Below, piece by piece: positions 1-10,224 of a DNA stretch of 64,000 nt. Position 1 is the stretch's first letter. The number at the start of each line of letters is the position of its first letter. A program made the translations under genes and the position numbers. The stretch lies in assembly GCA_965206765.1 (NCBI GenBank), contig OZ242222.1, positions 1,191,165 to 1,255,164 on the forward strand, written 5' to 3'. The notes under the pieces are model-generated. The model made no database searches. It saw only the letters and a program-made list of their open reading frames with translations, and had not been told where the DNA came from. Source of the DNA: Candidatus Multivorans sp. (lineage in GTDB: Bacteria > Acidobacteriota > Thermoanaerobaculia > Multivoradales > Multivoraceae).

Positions 1-777
1 ATGAAGGTGACCGTCCTGCCGTGCTTGGCGGCCGTGTTCTTGATGATGTACTTGTAGAGCATCATCGCGTCCGCGGTCTCCACCAGCGGGCCGAAGTGCA
101 GGTCGATCTCGGCCTGACCGCCGGTGCCGACCTCGTGGTGCTGGCACTCGACGTGGAGTCCGACATCTTCGAGGGTCAGCAGCATCTCGCTGCGCAGATC
201 CTGGTGCTTGTCGGTCGGCGGCACTGGGAAGTAGCCCTCCTTGTACCGCGGCTTGTAACCCAGGTTCGGTCCCTCGTCCGCGCCGCTGTTCCAGCGACCT
301 TCGATCGAGTCGACCTCGTAGAACCCGAAGTTCGGGCCGCCGTCGAAGCGCACATCGTCGAAGATGAAGAACTCGGCCTCGGGACCGAAGTAGGCGGTGT
401 CGGCAAGGCCCGTCGACTGGAGATAGGCCTCCGCGGCCTTGGCGACGCCGCGCGGATCGCGCCCGTAGCTCTCACGGGTGATCGGATCGACGATGCTGCA
501 CGTCATGACCAGAGTCTTGTGCTCGAAGTACGGGTCGATGAACGCCGTGCTGGGTTCGGGCACGACCAGCATGTCCGACTCGTTGATCACCTGCCACCCG
601 CGGATGCTCGAACCGTCGAATCCGAGCCCATCCTCGAACGTGCTCTCGTCGACCTCGCTGGCGGGCACCGAGAAGTGCTGCCAAAGACCGGGAAAGTCGG
701 TGAACCTGAGATCGACGATCTGGACGCCTTCGTCCCGGATCCGTCCAATGATCGACTGGGGGCTAGCCTCTGCCATG
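1..777 (-). CDS. glnA: Glutamine synthetase type I, N-terminal part; the gene runs off the window start
   Basis: The reverse-strand translation from the ATG at 777 reads MAEASPQSIIGRIRDEGVQIVDLRFTDFPGLWQHF...GFDGSSIRGW...HHEVGTGGQAEIDL, which matches the GS beta-grasp and catalytic N-terminal motifs. An AGGAGG RBS lies 7 nt upstream. The ORF track missed it because there is no stop within the window. Confidence 0.85.
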
Positions 778-1133
778 AAGTCCTCCTTTGCTTGTCCTTG
801 CCGCGGTGAAGCCGCGCCGAACCGATGTAGTCGAGCCGCCGACCCGACTGATTTCTGCATGCACGAAAGCGCTTTGGCCGCCTGTCTATCAGCGAGTCCA
901 TCAACTGGCAACCCACGGCGCCGACGCTGTGTGTCCTCCGCTAGCAACGTCCGTGCCCGGACGGCTTCTTGGGACGTAGAACAGGCCACACGCCCCGAAC
1001 TACCGCACCGATACGCCAGGAAGCACCCACCGCGATTGGCTTCCCGCTTCTCACGCTGATCGCGCGCGAGTAGACACAACAACTCTGTCGCAGCACTCGC
1101 CCCGGATCCGACGATTCTGTAGCGGGACGCGAG

Positions 1134-2444
1134 CTAGCCCGGTTCCAGCCGCCCGAGCACCGCTGTGTCCTCGCGCCATCCCGGGTGGGCCCTGACCTGC
1201 AACTCCAGGTGTACCCGCCGCTTCAGGAAGTCCTCCAGGTCCCGGCGGGCCGCGGTGCCGATTTCCTTGATCCGTTGGCCGCCGCGACCGATCACGATGC
1301 CCTTGTGGCTGTCCCGGTCGACCAGGATGTGCGCGAGCAGGTCCGTCCGCTTGTCGCCGTCCTCCCAGCCTTCGATGACCACGGCGGTCGTGAAAGGCAG
1401 TTCGTCCCGCGTCTGCTCGAGCACCTTCTCTCGAATCAGCTCCGCCACCAGGAAGCGTTCCGTGTGCACGGTCAGAATCTCCGGATCGTGCTGCGGCTCG
1501 CCCGCCGGAAGGCGCTGCCAGAGGATCTCCAGGACCTGTTCCACGCCGTCCCCGGTAAGCGCCGAGATGGGCACGATCTCCTCGAACACGCCGGGGCCGG
1601 CATACCGCTCGATCTCGGGCAACAGCCGGTGCTTCTTGACCTGGTCGATCTTGTTCAGCAGGCACAGCATCGGACGTTCCGGTCCGGCTGCCGCCGCGGC
1701 GCCGACGAGATCGAGGGCGTAGGCCTCGCCCTTGCCGAACGGAACCGCCACGTCGCGGATCAGGCATACGACGTCGGCCTCGTTGAGTGCCGCGGAGGCG
1801 GCGTGGACCATGCTGCGGTTCAACCGGTGCAGGGGCCGGTGCAGGCCGGGCGTGTCGTGGAACACCAGTTGGCCGCGTTCCGTGGTCAGGATGCCGATCA
1901 ATCGGTGGCGGGTGGTCTGCGGCTTGTCCGAGACGATCGCCAGCTTCTCGCCCAGCATCCGGTTCATCAGCGTCGACTTGCCCGCGTTCGGACGGCCCAC
2001 GAACGCCACCGTTCCGGTCTTGTACGGCCCCACGAAGTGCCCCCGCAGCCGCTGCTCCAGGGCCTCCATCTCGCCGTCGTCCGTCTCGTGGTCATAGCCC
2101 AGGCAATGCAGGATTCCGTGCAGTGCAAGCATCTGGAGCTCTCGCTCGAGGGCGGTGCGGCCGCGCGCCAGGGCCGTCTCCACCGAGATCACGACATCGC
2201 CCAGGTGCCGCCCCTCCGGGGTCGTCTCGCCGGGAAACGAGAGCACGTCGGTCGACGCATCGACCGTCCGGTAGCGGCGGTTCAACTCGCGGATCTCGTC
2301 GTCGCCTGTGAGGCGCAGGGTCAGCGTGGCCGGGGCCGGCGCAAGTTCCGCGACCACATCGTGAGCGACGCGGCGGAGACCGGGCAACAGGGCCTGGCAC
2401 CTGGCCTCCACGGTGGCCGCAACCTGCAGATCGATGGTCGCCAC
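1134..2444 (-). CDS. ybeY-era: Fused YbeY endoribonuclease (N-terminal ~135 aa, HGILHCLGYDH zinc motif) and Era GTPase (GRPNAGKSTLMN P-loop, C-terminal KH domain)
   Basis: A single uninterrupted 436-aa ORF. The YbeY H-x3-H-x5-H motif is followed in the same frame by the Era G1 motif, DTPG, NKxD and the KH-domain GxxG segment (VIGRGGQRIKEIG). Confidence 0.85.
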   Translation of the reverse strand: MATIDLQVAATVEARCQALLPGLRRVAHDVVAELAPAPATLTLRLTGDDEIRELNRRYRTVDASTDVLSFPGETTPEGRHLGDVVISVETALARGRTALERELQMLALHGILHCLGYDHETDDGEMEALEQRLRGHFVGPYKTGTVAFVGRPNAGKSTLMNRMLGEKLAIVSDKPQTTRHRLIGILTTERGQLVFHDTPGLHRPLHRLNRSMVHAASAALNEADVVCLIRDVAVPFGKGEAYALDLVGAAAAAGPERPMLCLLNKIDQVKKHRLLPEIERYAGPGVFEEIVPISALTGDGVEQVLEILWQRLPAGEPQHDPEILTVHTERFLVAELIREKVLEQTRDELPFTTAVVIEGWEDGDKRTDLLAHILVDRDSHKGIVIGRGGQRIKEIGTAARRDLEDFLKRRVHLELQVRAHPGWREDTAVLGRLEPG

Positions 2445-2450
2445 GGCGGG

Positions 2451-4868
2451 TCAGTCGGACTGTCCGCTCCCCGCGCCGCCGGGAAGCACCCGTAGCGAAC
2501 CGCGACTCTCGGCCTTGAAGTCGAACCCCGGATACTCCACCCGGTGGTGGTGGATCGTCTTCAGGACGTTCTGCACGGTGTAGCTCAGCCGGCGCAGGTC
2601 GGAGAGGGTCAGGTCGGTCTGATCCAACTGACCATCTTCGACAATGTCGTCCAGCAGGCGCGTGACCAAAGCCTGGATCGACTCCTCGGAGAAGTCCTTG
2701 AGGGTACGGCTCGCGGCCTCGACCGTATCGGCGACCATCAGCACGCCCATCGTCTTGTTCTGGGGCATCGGGCCCATGTACCGGTACTGGTGTTCGTTGA
2801 TGGTCTGGCCCGGCTCCGCCCGCTTCTTCGCCCGGTCGAGGAAGTAGCTGAGGGTGCGAGTACCGTGGTGCTGTTCGATCGCGTCCACGATCGGCTGCGG
2901 CAGACCCTCCTCCCGCGCCAGGCGGACGCCCTCCTTCACGTGATCGATGAGGATCAGCGCCGACATCGACGGAGCGAGCTTGTCGTGCGGGTTGTCTCCC
3001 TCGCGCTGGTTCTCCACGAAGTACTGCGGCCGCAGCACCTTGCCGATGTCGTGGTAGAGGCCTCCGACATACGCCAGCGTCGGGTTCCCGCCCACCGCCT
3101 CGCAGCCCGCCTTGGCGAGATTGGCGACCATCAGCGAGTGCTGGAAGGTGCCGGGCGCCTCGAAGGCAACGCGCTGAAGGAGCGGCTGATTCGTGTCGGA
3201 GAGCTCCATCAGCTTCATGTCCGTGGTCAGGAACAACGCCGCCTCGAACACGGGGATCGCGAAGCCGACCGCGGCCGCGACCAGCAGGCCGCCGAGGAGT
3301 GCGCAGAGCAGTTCGAAGCCCCAGCCGGCGATCGTGGCGCCGTTCTCGTCCAGCAGGGTCAGCACGGTCACCGAAGCCATGTTGACGAGTCCGACCAGCA
3401 GGCCCGCCCTGATCACCGCCGACCGCTGCTTCAGTTGATCGAGCGCGAACACGGCGGCGAGGCTGCCGGTCAGCGCGTAGAGCATCGTGCCGCCCGCCAA
3501 CCCAAGCTGCGAGGTGGTTGCCTCCGACCATCCGAGACGCCCCACCAGCACGGAGAAGACCAGGCCGGCAAGCAACCCGGCGCCACGGCCGTAGAGGACG
3601 GACACCAGCAGCGCGACCGCGGCGAACGGAATCGTGAAGCCGTAGCTCCGCGCTGAACTGAGCGCCTCGATCTCGAAGGAAGCGGCGAGCGCGTCGGCGA
3701 CCACGAAGCCGAAGCGGGTCGCCAGAAGCCCCAGAATCAACAGCAGCACGACGCTACCGAAGGCGCGGGCCTCGACGGTGACCAGCCGCTTGCGCCGGAA
3801 CGCGATCCACAGGAACGCCACCGCCAGCCCCAGCAGCAGCGCCGACGCCAGCGGCGATCGGAGCAGCGTCAGCGTCCCCTCGCTGCCCGTCATCTCCCGC
3901 AACAGACTGATGGCCTCCTGGTCGACCACGGCGCCCTTGCGCACGATGACCTGGCCCGCCCGGATCTGGTTGAACACCGATCCGACCGCTTCCGCGGCCG
4001 CGTTCCGGCGCTCCTGGGTCTCGTTCAGGTTCAGGTAGATGTTCGGGGTCAGGTTGACCATCAGGAAGTCGACGACCGTGTTCCGGTCGGCGCGGGACCA
4101 GCCGCCCCACCGGCCGACCTCCGCTTCCAGGTAGCTCTGCACCTCAACCGGGTACCCGCGGTAGCCGAAGAGGTCGAACTGGACCGACTCCTCGCCGGTC
4201 TGCATGTTGCGCTCCGTCACGCCCTCGAGCCGGTTCTGGAGCAGGGTCTCCTTGTTCTCCACGATCCCGCCCCGAAGCAGGAACCCGACCAGGCGAACGA
4301 GGCGCTCCTCCAGCTCCGCGCCTTCGTCCTGTTCGCCGATGCGGGCAGCAAGCAGGTCCGCGTGGCCTTCGTCGACCCGCAGATCGCTGCCCTCCCTCAG
4401 CCGCAGCAGCCGTTCGGAGGCCACGTCCTCCTCCGGCAGAAGCTCGGCCACCTCGTCGAAGCCCCGCTCGATCTCGAACAGGCGCCCGATCCGGCCCTCG
4501 ACCTCCTCAGCCAGGGCGGCGTCGAAGTCGTACAGCGGCCGGACCTCGGTACGGGCCCGCTGCTTCAGCTCCTCCGAGGTCGCCTCATCGAGGATCAGGA
4601 CGTCGCGGGTCGCGTGATAGTCGCGGTTCGCGATGTCGCCTTCGCTCAGATCCGGACCGAAGAAGAAGCCGGCCGGGGCCATGATCCAGGCGCCGGCCAG
4701 GACCATGAACACGACCCAGACGACGTCGAGCTCCAGCAACCAGTGCCACAGGCCGGCGACGGTCAGCCGTTCGCCGTGGCGCCGGAACATGCTGCGCCGC
4801 AGCCGCTTGCGAGCCTCCCGCCGCCGCCCGGTCCGGCGTCGCCGGGTTGTCTTCGCCGACGGGCTCAC
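2451..4868 (-). CDS. pgpH: 7TM-HD (HDIG-domain) membrane phosphohydrolase, PgpH/YqfF-like cyclic-di-AMP phosphodiesterase
   Basis: 805 aa. It has an N-terminal extracellular region, multiple TM helices and a C-terminal HD domain (LYHDIGKVL ... EQHHGTRTLSYF). It keeps the conserved position between phoH and ybeY. Confidence 0.8.
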   Translation of the reverse strand: MSPSAKTTRRRRTGRRREARKRLRRSMFRRHGERLTVAGLWHWLLELDVVWVVFMVLAGAWIMAPAGFFFGPDLSEGDIANRDYHATRDVLILDEATSEELKQRARTEVRPLYDFDAALAEEVEGRIGRLFEIERGFDEVAELLPEEDVASERLLRLREGSDLRVDEGHADLLAARIGEQDEGAELEERLVRLVGFLLRGGIVENKETLLQNRLEGVTERNMQTGEESVQFDLFGYRGYPVEVQSYLEAEVGRWGGWSRADRNTVVDFLMVNLTPNIYLNLNETQERRNAAAEAVGSVFNQIRAGQVIVRKGAVVDQEAISLLREMTGSEGTLTLLRSPLASALLLGLAVAFLWIAFRRKRLVTVEARAFGSVVLLLILGLLATRFGFVVADALAASFEIEALSSARSYGFTIPFAAVALLVSVLYGRGAGLLAGLVFSVLVGRLGWSEATTSQLGLAGGTMLYALTGSLAAVFALDQLKQRSAVIRAGLLVGLVNMASVTVLTLLDENGATIAGWGFELLCALLGGLLVAAAVGFAIPVFEAALFLTTDMKLMELSDTNQPLLQRVAFEAPGTFQHSLMVANLAKAGCEAVGGNPTLAYVGGLYHDIGKVLRPQYFVENQREGDNPHDKLAPSMSALILIDHVKEGVRLAREEGLPQPIVDAIEQHHGTRTLSYFLDRAKKRAEPGQTINEHQYRYMGPMPQNKTMGVLMVADTVEAASRTLKDFSEESIQALVTRLLDDIVEDGQLDQTDLTLSDLRRLSYTVQNVLKTIHHHRVEYPGFDFKAESRGSLRVLPGGAGSGQSD

Positions 4869-5869
4869 CGAGCCTCCTGCCGCCCCGAGTCGGGACCGAA
4901 ACGAGCCTCCCAGCGGTCATAGGCGCCGACGACCCGCTGTACGAGTTCGTGGCGGACCACGTCGGACCGCCCGAAGCGCACGAATTCAATGCCCTCCTCG
5001 CCGCGAAGCACCTCGAGTGCGTGCTTCAGCCCCGACTGCTGGCCGGGCGGGAGGTCGACCTGCGTGATATCGCCGTTGACCACCGCCTTCGAGTTGAAGC
5101 CGATGCGGGTCAGGAACATCTTCATCTGCTCCGGCGTCGTGTTCTGCGCCTCGTCGAGGATGATGAAGCTGTCGTTGAGCGAGCGACCCCGCATGAAGGC
5201 GAGCGGCGCCACCTCGATCACTTCGCGTTCCATCATCCTCGACACCTGGTCGAAGCCGATGATGTCGTAGAGAGCATCGTAGAGCGGTCGCAGGTAGGGG
5301 TTCACCTTCTCCGCCAGGTCGCCGGGCAGGAACCCGAGCTTCTCGCCCGCTTCGACCGCCGGCCGCGCCAGCACGATACGCCGGACCTTCTCCTGCTTGA
5401 GCGCGGAAGCCGCCACCGCCACCGCCAGGTAGGTCTTGCCCGTGCCCGCCGGCCCGGTCGAGATGACCAGATCATGATCCAGCATAGCGCGCAGGTAGCG
5501 CTTCTGGTTCAGGCTGCGTGGAGCGACGAGGCGACGCGAGGCCAGGATCAACGCTCCGGTCTTGAAGAAATCGACCAGCGATGTGGCCGGTTCCTCGGCC
5601 ACCACGCGCAGCGCGGTCGCCAGGTCGCCACCGCTGAGCCTGCGGCCACTCGCGGCCAGCGTGCCGAGGTCGGTGAGCAGGCGCTCCGCCTGGCTCACCG
5701 CCTTCGCCGCACCCTGGATCTGAACCGCCGATCCACGCACGCCGAGGGTCACCTGGAGCGCCTTCTCGACCCGCCGCAGGTTCTCGTCGTGGGCGCCGCA
5801 GATCGCCTGCACCGACCCTTCGGGCAGGATCAACTGCGCTCTGGCCGGCGCTGGTTCAGCGGTAGTCAA
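4865..5869 (-). CDS. phoH: PhoH-like ATPase (PhoH/YbeZ)
   Basis: Walker A GPAGTGKTYLAVAVA, ILDEAQN and DITQVDLP motifs. The stop overlaps the pgpH start. Confidence 0.9.
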   Translation of the reverse strand: MTTAEPAPARAQLILPEGSVQAICGAHDENLRRVEKALQVTLGVRGSAVQIQGAAKAVSQAERLLTDLGTLAASGRRLSGGDLATALRVVAEEPATSLVDFFKTGALILASRRLVAPRSLNQKRYLRAMLDHDLVISTGPAGTGKTYLAVAVAASALKQEKVRRIVLARPAVEAGEKLGFLPGDLAEKVNPYLRPLYDALYDIIGFDQVSRMMEREVIEVAPLAFMRGRSLNDSFIILDEAQNTTPEQMKMFLTRIGFNSKAVVNGDITQVDLPPGQQSGLKHALEVLRGEEGIEFVRFGRSDVVRHELVQRVVGAYDRWEARFGPDSGRQEAR

Positions 5870-6707
5870 AGAACCCCTTGCCGGTCTTGCGTCCCAGTCG
5901 CCCGGCCTGGACCATCTGCTTGAGCAGTGTCGGCGGGGCGAAGCGGGTCTCCCGGTACTCGTCGAACATGATGTTCGCGACGTAGTACATCGTGTCCAGG
6001 CCGATGAAGTCGCACAGCGTGAACGGTCCCATCGGATAGCCGCAGCCCAGCTTCATCGCGGTGTCGATGTCTTCCAGGCTGCCGATGCCGTTCTCGTAGG
6101 CGCGGATCGCATCCAGCAGATACGGGACCAGCAGCCGATTGACGATGAAACCGGAGTTGTCCTTGCACGCGACCGGCGTCTTGCCGACCCGCTTGGCCAG
6201 ATCCCAGCAGGCGTCGTACGCCTCGTCCGACGTCATCAGGGTGCGGACGACCTCGACCAGCCGCATCGCCGGCACCGGATTGAAGAAGTGGAGCCCCACG
6301 AACCGGTCCGGCCTCGAGGTCGAAGCGGCGAGCTGGGTCAGGGTCAGCGAGGACGTGTTGCTGGCGAAGATCGTGTCCTCCCCGACGATGTCGTCCAGGG
6401 AGACGAACAGCTCGCGCTTCGACTCCAGGTCCTCGACGATCGCCTCGACGATCAGATCGGAACCGGCGAGATCCGCAAGGTCGACCGTGCCGGACAGGTT
6501 CGAGATCGCCCGGTCGTGCTCCCCGGCGTCGATACGCCGCTTCTCCAGACTCTTGGCCAGGGACACGCGCACCGCGCCGAGCCCCGCATCGAGCAGTTCC
6601 CGGTTGATCTCCCTGACCGTGACCGGGATCCCGGCCCGCGAACAGATCTCTGCAATGCCCCGGCCCATGAGACCGCAGCCGACGATGCCAATGCGTTGCA
6701 CTTCCAT
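5856..6707 (-). CDS. hbd: 3-hydroxyacyl-CoA / 3-hydroxybutyryl-CoA dehydrogenase
   Basis: The start is at the internal MEVQRIGIVGCGLMGRGIA Rossmann motif. The HFFNPVP segment and the C-terminal dimerisation region are present. The annotated ORF has a 22-codon upstream extension, which I reject. Confidence 0.8.
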   Translation of the reverse strand: MEVQRIGIVGCGLMGRGIAEICSRAGIPVTVREINRELLDAGLGAVRVSLAKSLEKRRIDAGEHDRAISNLSGTVDLADLAGSDLIVEAIVEDLESKRELFVSLDDIVGEDTIFASNTSSLTLTQLAASTSRPDRFVGLHFFNPVPAMRLVEVVRTLMTSDEAYDACWDLAKRVGKTPVACKDNSGFIVNRLLVPYLLDAIRAYENGIGSLEDIDTAMKLGCGYPMGPFTLCDFIGLDTMYYVANIMFDEYRETRFAPPTLLKQMVQAGRLGRKTGKGFFDYR

Positions 6708-6747
6708 CGAACTCTCTTCTCGCCTCCTCTTGTAGGTCCGCGGCGAA

Positions 6748-7215
6748 TCAGCCGCTCCGGTTCCGAGAGCCACCTGGCCCGGTTTCGGTGCGGGACTCTA
6801 GCAACGGTTCCAGCACCTCGATCCTCCGCTGTCCTGGTTCCCGACCGACCTCCAACCGGACCTCCATCGCCGGCACGGGGTACGGCAGGCGGTCGGCCCA
6901 CTCGACGACCTTGACACCGTCCCCCGCCAACAACTCCTCCAACCCGATCCCCTCGACCTCCTCCGGCTCCAGCCGGTAGAGGTCTACATGGACCAGACGC
7001 GCCGGCCCGCGGTCGTGCTCGTGAATCAGAGTGAAGGTCGGCGACTGGATCTGCCCCGCGTCGAGCCCCAGGCCCTCGGCTATGCCCTGGGTCAGAACCG
7101 TCTTGCCGGAACCCAGGTCGCCGAACAGGAGTGCCATGCCATCGGGCCTCAGCCGTTCGGCGAGTTCGACCCCCAACTTCCGGGTCTCTCCGGCGCTCCC
7201 GGTGCGAACGATCAT
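6748..7215 (-). CDS. tsaE: tRNA threonylcarbamoyladenosine biosynthesis ATPase TsaE (YjeE)
   Basis: 155 aa with P-loop GDLGSGKTVLTQGIAEGLG and the conserved SPTFTLIHEH segment. Confidence 0.85.
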   Translation of the reverse strand: MIVRTGSAGETRKLGVELAERLRPDGMALLFGDLGSGKTVLTQGIAEGLGLDAGQIQSPTFTLIHEHDRGPARLVHVDLYRLEPEEVEGIGLEELLAGDGVKVVEWADRLPYPVPAMEVRLEVGREPGQRRIEVLEPLLESRTETGPGGSRNRSG

Positions 7216-8762
7216 GGCTCCAACAGCGACTTGAACGCCGATCCGAGTTCATCGACCAGGTCGGAGGCGGCCATCGACGTCTCACCCCAGGTTGCGGCGG
7301 CCAGATCGCCCGCCAGACCATGAACGTAAACGCCCATCCTCGCCGCGGAAGGCGGTTCCAATCCCTGGGCCAAGAGCGCCGCGATCACCCCGGTCAGCAC
7401 GTCGCCACTGCCCCCTGTCGCCATACCCGGGTTGCCGGTCGGGTTCACCCAGGTGCCGAGGGCGGGGTCCGAGATCAGCGTCTGGCGGCCCTTGAGGACG
7501 ACCACCGCCCCGGTCTCGCGAGCAGCCCGCCGCGCATACCCCCAGCGGTCGTTCACGACGGCATCGGTCGCGACGCCCAACAGGCGCGCCAGCTCGCCCG
7601 GATGGGGCGTGATCACGAGATGCGTGTCGCGCGCCCGGAGCGCCCTCGCGTCGCCGGCGAATGCGGAAATGCCGTCCGCGTCGAGGACGACCGAGGCCGT
7701 ACTCCGGGCCAGCACCTGCCGGGCAAGAACGCGGGCATCGCCGCTCAGGCCGAGGCCCGGGCCCAGCGCCAACGCGCCCGGCGAGGCGCGCTCGACGATC
7801 GCCTGCAGCAACGGCTCCACCGCGTCCCGCGACCAGCCGCCCCGCTCCGAGGGCAGGCCCAGGGTCATCGACTCGATCGAACCGGCGTCGACCACAAGAG
7901 CGAGGTGCTCCGGCACAGCCGCCGTGACCAGACCGGCGCCGCTCCGGACAGCGGCGCGCGCCGCCAGGACCACGGCCCCGCTGTAGCCGCTCGCTCCGCC
8001 GGCAACGACGACGTGACCGAACGTTCCCTTGTGGCCACCCCGCGGACGCGTTCCGAGGCGGCCCATCAGTTCCTCCCGCCGCGACTGGTAGAGCGCATCG
8101 GGCCCCGGGGGCGGTTCCGTCAGCGGCACACCGAGATCGCCGATCCGGAGCCGGCCGCCAGCGTCGGAGGCCGGCGCCAGCACGTTCGCAACCTTGGGGA
8201 AGCCCAGAGCCACGGTGAGATCGGCGACGACGTGGGGCCCAGGCGGCACGGCCGCGGAGGCATCGAGCCCGGTCGGCAGGTCGACCGAGACGACGGGGAC
8301 TTCTCCCCGGCAGTTGCTCAGCCAGTCGACCCAGCGGGCCACCGGGCCTTCGACGGGCCGATTCAGCCCCGTGCCGAGCAGCGCGTCGACCCAGAGGTCG
8401 ACCTCCCGGCCCACCGCGTCGGACTTGGCGGGCTCGGGAACCGCCGCGGGCGACAGCCCGAGCTGCTCGCAGGAGACGAGCTGCTGCGCCGCTTCGAGGC
8501 TGAGTCTGTCGAGCGGTCCGGCGATGTAGGCCGTCGCTTCGTACCCCCGCGTCGTCAGATCGCGCAGCAGCGCCAGACCGTCGCCGCCGTTGTTGCCCCG
8601 GCCGCAGACGATGGCGACACGGCGCGCGCGCGGATAGCACTCGGCAATGGCGTCGGCGATGGCGCAAGCCGCGTTCTCCATCAAGACCAGCGCCGGCACG
8701 TTCAGGCCGGAGATCGCCGCGGCTTCGACCGACCGCATCTCGTCGCTGGTGACGACTCTCAC
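7212..8762 (-). CDS. nnr: Bifunctional NAD(P)H-hydrate repair enzyme Nnr (N-terminal epimerase YjeF_N plus C-terminal ADP-dependent dehydratase)
   Basis: CGRGNNGGDGL (YjeF_N), then GHKGTFGHVVVAGG ... GNPGMATGGSGDVLTG in the carbohydrate-kinase-like C-domain. I place the start at the GTG at 8762, which forms a GTGA overlap with the upstream gene. The annotated 577-aa ORF carries a 5' read-through. Confidence 0.8.
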   Translation of the reverse strand: MRVVTSDEMRSVEAAAISGLNVPALVLMENAACAIADAIAECYPRARRVAIVCGRGNNGGDGLALLRDLTTRGYEATAYIAGPLDRLSLEAAQQLVSCEQLGLSPAAVPEPAKSDAVGREVDLWVDALLGTGLNRPVEGPVARWVDWLSNCRGEVPVVSVDLPTGLDASAAVPPGPHVVADLTVALGFPKVANVLAPASDAGGRLRIGDLGVPLTEPPPGPDALYQSRREELMGRLGTRPRGGHKGTFGHVVVAGGASGYSGAVVLAARAAVRSGAGLVTAAVPEHLALVVDAGSIESMTLGLPSERGGWSRDAVEPLLQAIVERASPGALALGPGLGLSGDARVLARQVLARSTASVVLDADGISAFAGDARALRARDTHLVITPHPGELARLLGVATDAVVNDRWGYARRAARETGAVVVLKGRQTLISDPALGTWVNPTGNPGMATGGSGDVLTGVIAALLAQGLEPPSAARMGVYVHGLAGDLAAATWGETSMAASDLVDELGSAFKSLLEP

Positions 8763-9529
8763 TGCCGGGACTCCGTTGCTGGCGGACGGCGGGACCAGGA
8801 CGCCACCACGTCGGCGGTTCGCGGGCACAGGGACCGCAACTCGGGCCGGCATTCGAGAGCGGCCCGGAATCGAGCCAGATCGTCCACCGTGTCGAGATCC
8901 TCCTCTTCCGGCAGGAGGGCAACATCCAGGCCCAACTCGCCGCAACGCGACAGCGTCTCGGAAAGCACCGACGGCGTGCTCCAGGCCACTCCGTCGAACA
9001 ACCGACGGTCTACAGCCTCACGCCGCAGGGCGATCAGGTAGTAGCCACCGTCCCGAGCCGGACCCAGGGCCGCATCGCGCCCGGCGGCAAGAAGATCGAA
9101 CGCCATCTCCACCCGCGCCGGATCGAGCTCGGGGTGATCGCTGCCGACCGCCGCCGCGTATCCGGCGCCGGACGCCGCCCATTCCAAACCCCGGTAGAGC
9201 CGCTCGCCCAGGTCGCGACCGCGCTGTCGCCGCCAGGACACGCCGGCAGGCGCCAGGTCGGCTGGCGGATCATCCCCCTTCGACAACGACCACATCAGAA
9301 CCAGATCCCAGCAGCCGGCTTCGAGACGTCGGCTCAGGTCCGCAACCAGGGCGGCGTGCAGCGAAGCGGCCTGACGACCGGTCAGACCGCCTGGAACGAT
9401 CAACCGGGTCTTCACGTCGCCGGGCACCGGGTCCTTGGCGAAGAGCAGCAGCCGGCGCGCCGTCGCGTCGGCGGACCGAACGCCGGGCGCCTCCAGAACC
9501 CTCGCGCAGTCGACGGGGTGCGCCACCAT
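8759..9529 (-). CDS. DUF2064 (TIGR04282) family protein, glycosyltransferase-like nucleotidyltransferase fold
   Basis: LLLFAKDPVPGDVKTRL ... GSDHPEL ... GGYYLIAL ... STPSVL pattern typical of DUF2064. 256 aa. Confidence 0.6.
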   Translation of the reverse strand: MVAHPVDCARVLEAPGVRSADATARRLLLFAKDPVPGDVKTRLIVPGGLTGRQAASLHAALVADLSRRLEAGCWDLVLMWSLSKGDDPPADLAPAGVSWRRQRGRDLGERLYRGLEWAASGAGYAAAVGSDHPELDPARVEMAFDLLAAGRDAALGPARDGGYYLIALRREAVDRRLFDGVAWSTPSVLSETLSRCGELGLDVALLPEEEDLDTVDDLARFRAALECRPELRSLCPRTADVVASWSRRPPATESRQ

Positions 9530-9544
9530 CGCCCGAAAGGGCCC

Positions 9545-9763
9545 TCACCTCTTCCTGAGCCGTCTGAGCGACCACGCGATGGCGATCCCGACGGCGCCCG
9601 CCGCGACAGGCAACACCCAGGCTGTCCCCACGCGGACGCGGCTCAGATCGGTTCCGCCCACATCACCGAGCGCCCTGCGGACCTGCGCCACGGCCTCTCT
9701 CGTGTCGTCACGCCGGCGAACCAGCAAAGCCGCCCGCTGGCGCGCCTCCGACCGGCGGCTCAC
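9545..9763 (-). CDS. Small hypothetical membrane protein, possibly a YqjK-like partner of the upstream holin-X-like protein
   Basis: 72 aa, Arg-rich N-terminus and one hydrophobic segment (WVLPVAAGAVGIAIAWSL). Its start overlaps the stop of the 9760..10224 gene. Confidence 0.4.
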   Translation of the reverse strand: MSRRSEARQRAALLVRRRDDTREAVAQVRRALGDVGGTDLSRVRVGTAWVLPVAAGAVGIAIAWSLRRLRKR

Positions 9764-10224
9764 GATCCACTCCCGGACGACTCGTCGGGATCCCGATCCG
9801 AAGCCGCGTCGCTCCTGCCTGCGGCCTCGTCCAGAAGGCCCTTCCAGAACGCCAGGTGACTGCCGACGCGGCGCTTCACGGTACCCACGGGCGATTCGAG
9901 ACGGCGCGCCCTGACACGGACGATCCAGAGCAGGATCAACGCCAGCGCCAGCAGGCCGACGGCGACCGCCAGCGCGGCCGCCCAGAGCGGCAGCACATTC
10001 GCCAAGCCGGCGCCGGCCGCGAAGAGGAGTGCGCCGAGCGCCCAGAAGACGACGCCGAACACCAGTCCCGCGAGCAGAACGAGGCCAAGAAAACGGCGCC
10101 AGTTCTGCGCCAGGTCGAAGCGCAGTTGATCCACTTCCGCTTCGAGCAGGGCCGAGGCGGAACGCGCCAGAGCACCTCCCAGCCCACTCAGAGTGGTCAA
10201 TGACTCGACGAACTTCGTGGTCAT
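9760..10224 (-). CDS. Phage holin family (Holin-X / YqjE-like, PF07332) membrane protein
   Basis: 154 aa. The MTTKFVESLTTLSGL...LLEAEVDQLRFDLAQ N-terminus followed by two TM helices is characteristic of the holin-X/YqjE family. Confidence 0.55.
   Translation of the reverse strand: MTTKFVESLTTLSGLGGALARSASALLEAEVDQLRFDLAQNWRRFLGLVLLAGLVFGVVFWALGALLFAAGAGLANVLPLWAAALAVAVGLLALALILLWIVRVRARRLESPVGTVKRRVGSHLAFWKGLLDEAAGRSDAASDRDPDESSGSGS

Follow-up and report, generated by a model that had tools for sequence, protein, structure and literature searches.

Fusions of the endoribonuclease YbeY to the GTPase Era have been reported in several Clostridia, in some Selenomonadales and in Thermoleophilum album (Wood et al. 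2019, PMC6738653; Gruffaz & Smirnov 2023, PMC10582724). YbeY–Era is the most frequent Era fusion known, and the function of the fused proteins is listed as an open question (PMC10582724). A 2016 mBio paper makes no mention of a natural YbeY–Era fusion. In this study a fused ybeY::era gene was analysed in a 64-kb stretch of DNA from Candidatus Multivorans (Acidobacteriota), the whole of which is referred to here as the window. Its sequence, conservation and predicted structure suggest that this gene very probably encodes a vertically inherited fusion, a single bifunctional 30S-subunit biogenesis factor of ~48 kDa that holds an intact YbeY and a complete Era. The architecture is already known and fairly widespread, and the window fusion is a further example of it and not a new kind of system. 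What is new here is the acidobacterial lineage, the independent origin and the near-minimal, ordered junction. The fused gene and its parts are as follows.

1134..2444, minus strand: fused ybeY::era gene, 436 codons plus a TAG stop (1134-1136); no stop in the same frame in 24 related genomes.
2031..2444, minus strand: YbeY half, amino acids 1-138, with its last helix at 125-138; PF02130 and TIGR00043 above cut-off, AlphaFold2 secondary structure and a Foldseek match to 1oz9 (target TM-score, TMt, 0.75).
2088..2120, minus strand: YbeY zinc-binding motif HGILHCLGYDH (H109, H113, H119), seen in the sequence, in the E. coli alignment and in 58/58 fused homologues.
2007..2045, minus strand: fusion junction, amino acids 134-146, RGHFVGPYKTGTV; a 3-residue turn leads from the last YbeY helix to Era strand 1, with a predicted local distance difference test score (pLDDT) of 84-93 for the block.
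1485..2021, minus strand: Era GTPase domain, amino acids 142-320, with G1 GRPNAGKS (1974-1997), G2 T177/T178, G3 DTPG, G4 NKID and G5 SA; family models, invariant columns and a Foldseek match to the Era ON state.
1137..1460, minus strand: Era KH (type II) domain with GRGG, amino acids 329-436; PF07650, with G386 and G389 invariant.

The gene is a single open reading frame (ORF) of 436 amino acids with a GTG start. Curated hidden Markov models (HMMs) recognised both of its halves. The YbeY half matched Pfam PF02130 at amino acids 30-132 (91.7 bits, cut-off 25) and the NCBIfam YbeY equivalog TIGR00043 at amino acids 23-133 (93.6 bits, cut-off 45). The remainder matched the NCBIfam equivalog for full-length Era, NF000908, at amino acids 141-433 (325.3 bits, cut-off 237; model positions 1-289 of 291), the Era model TIGR00436 (243.4 bits, cut-off 116), the Pfam GTPase domain MMR_HSR1 (amino acids 145-265 of the fusion) and KH_2 (PF07650; amino acids 364-423, 53.7 bits). 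The original prediction, made by a model from the DNA sequence alone, held that one polypeptide carries a YbeY zinc motif followed in the same frame by a complete Era. The ORF and the curated cut-offs bear this out, and a scan with PF02130 and the Era and KH_2 models, which had been proposed along with it, matched both halves. The predicted positions of HGILHCLGYDH (nt 2120..2088) and GRPNAGKS (nt 1997..1974) were correct, and the junction, placed there at 2040-2060, was found close by at about nt 2045..2007 (…EALEQRLRGHFVG-PYKTGTVAFVGRPNAGKST). At this junction the end of the last YbeY helix (…RLRGHFVG) is joined to Era just ahead of strand 1 (PYKTGTVA…), and the short N-terminal extension of Era is missing. 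The spacing from zinc motif to G1 is 41 residues, near the short end of the 40-150 seen among fused representatives. The reading as a YbeY–Era fusion holds, given that each half scores above its family cut-offs, that no catalytic or GTPase motif is damaged and that related genomes keep the fusion.

Comparison with genomes and proteins revealed the fusion throughout the family. The best genome match to the window in the genome scan (Candidatus Multivorans/Multivoraceae, Acidobacteriota, Thermoanaerobaculia) was OZ253534.1, at 96% amino-acid identity. YbeY and Era are in frame, with no intervening stop, in 24/24 Multivoraceae species-level loci, several of them complete chromosomes, which answers positively the survey of related genomes suggested earlier. 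All 24 loci share the order tsaE–3-hydroxyacyl-CoA dehydrogenase–phoH–pgpH–ybeY::era–glnA. The protein search yielded 58 clusters with both PF02130 and Era domains, at 48-93% identity, several on Mb-scale contigs. Pairwise ratios of nonsynonymous to synonymous substitution (dN/dS) between the window and 12 fused relatives were 0.17-0.36 in the YbeY half and 0.14-0.43 in the Era half, and each half evolves under purifying selection. Within the clade, identity is 63-91% for the YbeY half and 75-98% for the Era half, so that the YbeY half evolves faster. The earliest branches and the subclade of the window have a distance of 41 between zinc motif and G1, as against 46-70 in other Multivoraceae, where the linker has grown in some subclades by low-complexity inserts such as PSEVPGTRRAG (fused homologues P0011-P0046). 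As judged from these sequences, the YbeY–Era fusion is genuine and conserved in this acidobacterial family.

Alignment with E. coli YbeY (1xm5) matched H109, H113 and H119 of the window with H114, H118 and H124, and the conserved arginine R59 is retained (R59 in E. coli). T42, R44 and D83 of the window align with T42, R44 and D85 of the E. coli β-sheet, residues that mediate uS11 binding (PMC5101352). The HxxxHxxxxxH zinc triad is kept in 58/58 fused homologues. In an alignment of 56 homologues, the Era motifs G1-G5 and the GxxG of the KH domain (G386-R-G-G389) are invariant columns. From these residues the YbeY half is predicted to be catalytically intact. An AlphaFold2 model built from the 56-homologue alignment reached a mean pLDDT of 87.1 and a predicted TM-score (pTM) of 0.75. 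In the model the YbeY helix 125-138 passes through the turn into Era strand 1 at 142-150, and the junction is ordered. Foldseek matched the YbeY fold of the model to 7y7o (TMt 0.71) in addition to 1oz9, and the two-domain Era fold to 3iev_A (TMt 0.89, root-mean-square deviation 2.4 Å) and 7c1o (TMt 0.88). In the entry 3iev, Aquifex Era carries GNP and the 3' end of 16S rRNA and is in the RNA-bound ON state; the modelled Era part did not superpose on the apo/GDP forms 1ega and 9jkp (deviation 12-18 Å). No chain in the PDB spans both halves, by sequence or by fold (best query TM-score, TMq, 0.62).

The origin of the fusion was analysed by neighbour joining of 200 sequences of the Era part; this tree and the bootstrap set below are distance analyses of one domain. 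Every member of the Multivoraceae fused clade carries the fusion, the groups that are successively sister to it are unfused, and fusions of other lineages lie in different parts of the tree (P0050; the P0048-P0060 group; L031; the Thermoleophilia L062 and L076). In a bootstrap set of 75 taxa and 100 replicates, the Multivoraceae fused clade was monophyletic in 100/100 replicates, and this clade together with a second fused group appeared in 2/100. A single origin of all acidobacterial fusions is ruled out, as these were monophyletic in 0/100 replicates. Fitch parsimony gave 3-7 changes of fusion state (mode 5). These changes are better read as multiple gains, since a return from the fused state to ybeY–corC–era would require a gene to insert again precisely at the point of fusion. 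The fused lineages also differ in junction sequence and linker length. By these sequence comparisons, the Multivoraceae fusion event is independent of the other fused lineages.

The neighbouring lineages suggest how the fusion arose. In most other sampled Acidobacteriota ybeY and era lie ~1.3 kb apart, and the order phoH–pgpH–ybeY–corC–era was found in many acidobacterial loci. At locus L024 the gene between them (L024:4734-6002) has CNNM, CBS and CorC_HlyC domains and is corC/tlyC-like; the order there is 3-hydroxyacyl-CoA dehydrogenase–phoH–ybeY–corC–era, with overlaps of 4-8 nt. A corC/tlyC-like gene was also seen at the equivalent position in about 40 other acidobacterial loci. The corC-like homologue is absent between ybeY and era in Multivoraceae, and none was found anywhere in the 64-kb window. 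Loci L027 and L029 (59-63% identity), the closest relatives with adjacent but unfused genes, also lack corC and have ybeY and era adjacent in different frames, with the ybeY stop inside the era start and an 8-nt overlap (L027:4520-4540 and L029:2005-2025; ATGACTGA / ATGCGTGA). This is a translational-coupling arrangement, one small indel short of a fusion. With relatives that carry either ybeY–corC–era or the 8-nt overlap, the fusion most likely arose within Thermoanaerobaculia after the corC-like gene had been lost, by a small deletion or indel spanning the coupled stop and start. Loss of dgkA and cdd from a Bacillus-type operon was considered as an origin and is ruled out, because the relatives carry the corC-like gene between ybeY and era. 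The original prediction had drawn the Bacillus comparison; dgkA and cdd are indeed missing at the window, but the relevant ancestral arrangement is the one with the corC-like gene and not that of Bacillus.

The fusions of Clostridia, Selenomonadales and Thermoleophilum share with the window fusion the order of YbeY at the N-terminus, Era GTPase domain and KH domain (InterPro IPR002036 with Era) and the same presumed role. They differ in that the window fusion belongs to Acidobacteriota, a phylum not named in those papers, and is an independent event with another junction sequence and a spacing of 41. Compared with the separate YbeY and Era of E. coli and S. aureus, the two families and their key residues are the same, whereas the connection here is covalent and essentially linker-less, enforcing 1:1 stoichiometry and proximity. 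The order phoH–pgpH–ybeY…era and its tight coupling are shared with E. coli ybeZ(phoH)–ybeY–ybeX(corC) and B. subtilis phoH–yqfF(pgpH)–yqfG(ybeY)–dgkA–cdd–era, and the phylum-typical acidobacterial operon phoH–(pgpH)–ybeY–corC–era combines the E. coli and B. subtilis patterns. Unlike these operons, nothing stands between ybeY and era here, and the lost gene is corC-like, not dgkA or cdd. The RNase III–Era fusions of some Rickettsia (PMC10582724) likewise join Era to an rRNA-processing nuclease that is an operon neighbour, and the nuclease family is different.

Of the best 150 clusters in an exhaustive search of 1.84 billion representatives, 30 carried a YbeY zinc motif upstream of Era G1 in one chain, with a spacing of 40-150. 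Ten fused clusters were looked up and one had an organism name, a Clostridiaceae protein with the IMG name 'GTP-binding protein Era/rRNA maturation RNase YbeY', and fused genes were observed directly in Thermoleophilia (L062, L076) and in the Clostridiaceae cluster (P0279/P0411). The description of the fusion as uncommon is thus true only in a relative sense, as it is present in the literature and in these 30 clusters. Acidobacterial fused sequences are already in NCBI, named only 'GTPase Era' (P0005, P0008, P0026, P0027). With this label the genomes seem to be without an annotated YbeY, and the YbeY function is easily missed by automated annotation.

Several other explanations of the gene were weighed. 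A sequencing or assembly artefact, a frameshift or lost stop between two adjacent genes, would be conceivable from L027 and L029, where a 1-nt indel error in the overlap of the two frames would mimic a fusion. The chance of this is negligible, as the frame is intact in the 24 species-level genomes, which are independent of one another, and in the 58 protein clusters, which come from various sources, and as both halves are under purifying selection; the Era N-terminal extension is missing as well, so the junction is not a simple overlap-type frameshift. It is very unlikely that one half is a degenerate, non-catalytic appendage, for instance with YbeY kept just as an adaptor to uS11 or Era just as an anchor to RNA. 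The faster evolution of the YbeY half would fit such a role, as would the debate on the catalytic role of YbeY in 16S 3' processing (PMC10582724), but the zinc triad in all 58 fused homologues, the conserved R59 and uS11-interface residues, the invariance of all G motifs and a dN/dS well under 1 in both halves argue against it.

Two further explanations accept the gene and place two proteins behind it. Era might also, or mainly, be made separately by internal translation initiation near the junction, for which the window offers in-frame GTG codons at V137, V145 and V148 and a G-rich CGGGGG 6 nt ahead of the V137 codon. The GTG at V137 is, however, confined to the window and L019, its closest relative, other members having CTG or CTC; the junction of L021 has no ATG, GTG or TTG at all; and a start at V145 or V148 would, in the structure model, remove part of Era strand 1. 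An internal Era start at V137 as a conserved feature is ruled out by this distribution, no conserved internal start codon was found at the junction among the fused relatives compared, and we regard internal initiation as very unlikely. Cleavage of the finished polypeptide at the junction into two proteins seems most improbable. The low-complexity linkers of 6-29 amino acids in some subclades could be accessible to proteases, but the window form and the earliest-branching members have no linker, and AlphaFold2 predicts an ordered, high-confidence junction. Among 5.8 billion proteins neither a standalone Era above 67% identity nor a standalone YbeY above 66% identity was found, and these levels correspond to sister lineages and not to the Multivoraceae clade. 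The YbeY-only protein search listed standalone YbeYs and not the higher-scoring fused relatives; it serves here for the absence of a clade-like standalone copy and not as a census. No second ybeY or era copy is present within the 64-kb window. The lack of clade-like standalone proteins and of a second copy in the window suggests that Era is made only as the fusion in the Multivoraceae lineage.

The fused gene lies in a cluster of co-oriented genes. The neighbouring features of the window are as follows.

2451..4868, minus strand: PgpH-type seven-transmembrane (7TM) receptor with HD hydrolase domain, 805 amino acids; PF07697, PF07698 and PF01966, TIGR00277 HDIG; 7TMR-HDED, 7TM and HD.
4865..5869, minus strand: PhoH/YbeZ-like ATPase, 334 amino acids; PF02562, 319 bits.
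5856..6773, minus strand: 3-hydroxyacyl-CoA dehydrogenase, co-oriented, upstream; syntenic in all Multivoraceae loci.
6748..7215, minus strand: TsaE, co-oriented, upstream; syntenic in all Multivoraceae loci.
7212..8945 (listed ORF), minus strand: bifunctional Nnr (YjeF_N and Carb_kinase, NAD(P)H-hydrate dehydratase), upstream.
8759..9529, minus strand: DUF2064 protein, upstream.
3..776, minus strand: glnA (glutamine synthetase type I), truncated by the window start, downstream of the fusion.

The pgpH stop lies 6 nt ahead of the fusion start, and phoH and pgpH overlap by 4 nt. The phoH–pgpH–ybeY–era cluster named in the original prediction was thereby recovered, with its co-orientation, the overlap and gap, Pfam matches and conserved synteny, and it leaves no space for dgkA or cdd. 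The listed ORFs of Nnr and DUF2064 overlap by ~190 nt, which probably places the true start of Nnr further downstream than the listed TTG. The 3-hydroxyacyl-CoA dehydrogenase gene keeps its place between tsaE and phoH across Multivoraceae and other Thermoanaerobaculia loci (L024, L026, L027, L032) and is an unexplained metabolic gene in the company of genes related to RNA and the ribosome. A 357-nt spacer (777-1133) separates the era stop from the glnA start; its G+C content of ~62% is below that of the flanking genes. An Rfam scan of window positions 1..10000, the spacer included, gave no matches. A promoter and terminator scan of 700..9600 found no site resembling a promoter and no terminator-like match that was not weak or intragenic, with no consensus promoter or terminator in the spacer, and is uninformative on operon boundaries.

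Other domain arrangements of Era were seen among the representatives. In P0347 (541 amino acids) a cytidylate kinase (PF02224, amino acids 12-223) is fused to a complete Era (MMR_HSR1 and KH_2). Cmk–Der fusions are known (NCBIfam NF007071), and Cmk–Era is not among the Era fusions of the 2023 review (PMC10582724). Nine representatives (P0277, P0284, P0292, P0300, P0345, P0351, P0373, P0378, P0381) have Era with N-terminal extensions of 100-170 amino acids, in which no Pfam match and no YbeY zinc motif was found. These extensions may represent organellar targeting regions, start codons called in the wrong place or domains as yet unknown.

YbeY is a zinc metallo-endoribonuclease and a uS11-binding module. 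As a separate protein, it is described in the literature as binding uS11 and Era and as needed for 16S 3' maturation and platform assembly; separate Era, in its GTP form, binds the 16S 3' minor domain via its KH domain. That YbeY and Era interact physically, as the original prediction stated, has been shown by two-hybrid, split-luciferase and pull-down results, and overexpression of era suppresses ΔybeY (literature including PMC10582724). By analogy with these separate proteins, the fusion would act as a single polypeptide in vivo, with co-delivery of both activities to the pre-30S particle and coupling to the GTPase cycle. In its GTP-bound form, Era would use the KH domain to dock at the platform cleft, on the 16S 3' end. 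It would thereby anchor the polypeptide on the nascent platform and bring YbeY, at 1:1 stoichiometry, to the neighbouring uS11 and 16S 3'-end region, and GTP hydrolysis would release both activities together. As YbeY is tied to the N-terminus of Era by only a 3-residue turn, its delivery would be both stoichiometric and short-range.

Some points weigh against this reading as a bifunctional factor. Docking and two-hybrid data suggest a weak contact between YbeY and Era, with YbeY mainly contacting uS11 (PMC5101352), and Era is argued to leave the 30S before final 3' processing (PMC10582724). The organism is known from metagenome-assembled genomes only. If Era leaves before the final cleavage, the benefit of the fusion may concern uS11 and platform assembly and not 3'-end cleavage. 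A more tentative idea, which draws on the placement of Era in its RNA-binding ON state by AlphaFold2 with high pTM, is that the linker-less fusion might fix YbeY on the Era GTPase domain in the physiological geometry that YbeY and Era take up on the nascent 30S platform.

The recruitment of YbeY to the small subunit and its joint role with Era is a still-open question on which this locus bears. If the idea of a fixed geometry is true, this one polypeptide would provide a YbeY·Era complex, ready-made and stoichiometric, for cryo-electron microscopy on pre-30S particles and for structural studies of late 30S assembly, and it could help to decide whether YbeY gets to the 16S 3' end and uS11, and in what way. 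The value for structural work suggested in the original prediction stands in so far as the junction is short and ordered and no fused chain is in the PDB; the fusion is not unique in offering it. The locus adds an acidobacterial lineage to the known fusions, along with a variant whose linker is ordered and essentially absent and which has no solved structure. That the fusion arose independently several times strengthens the case for YbeY and Era acting together, and at least three independent changes of fusion state in the sample (mode five) would, if the fixed geometry is true, be Rosetta-stone evidence that the two proteins act simultaneously as a unit.

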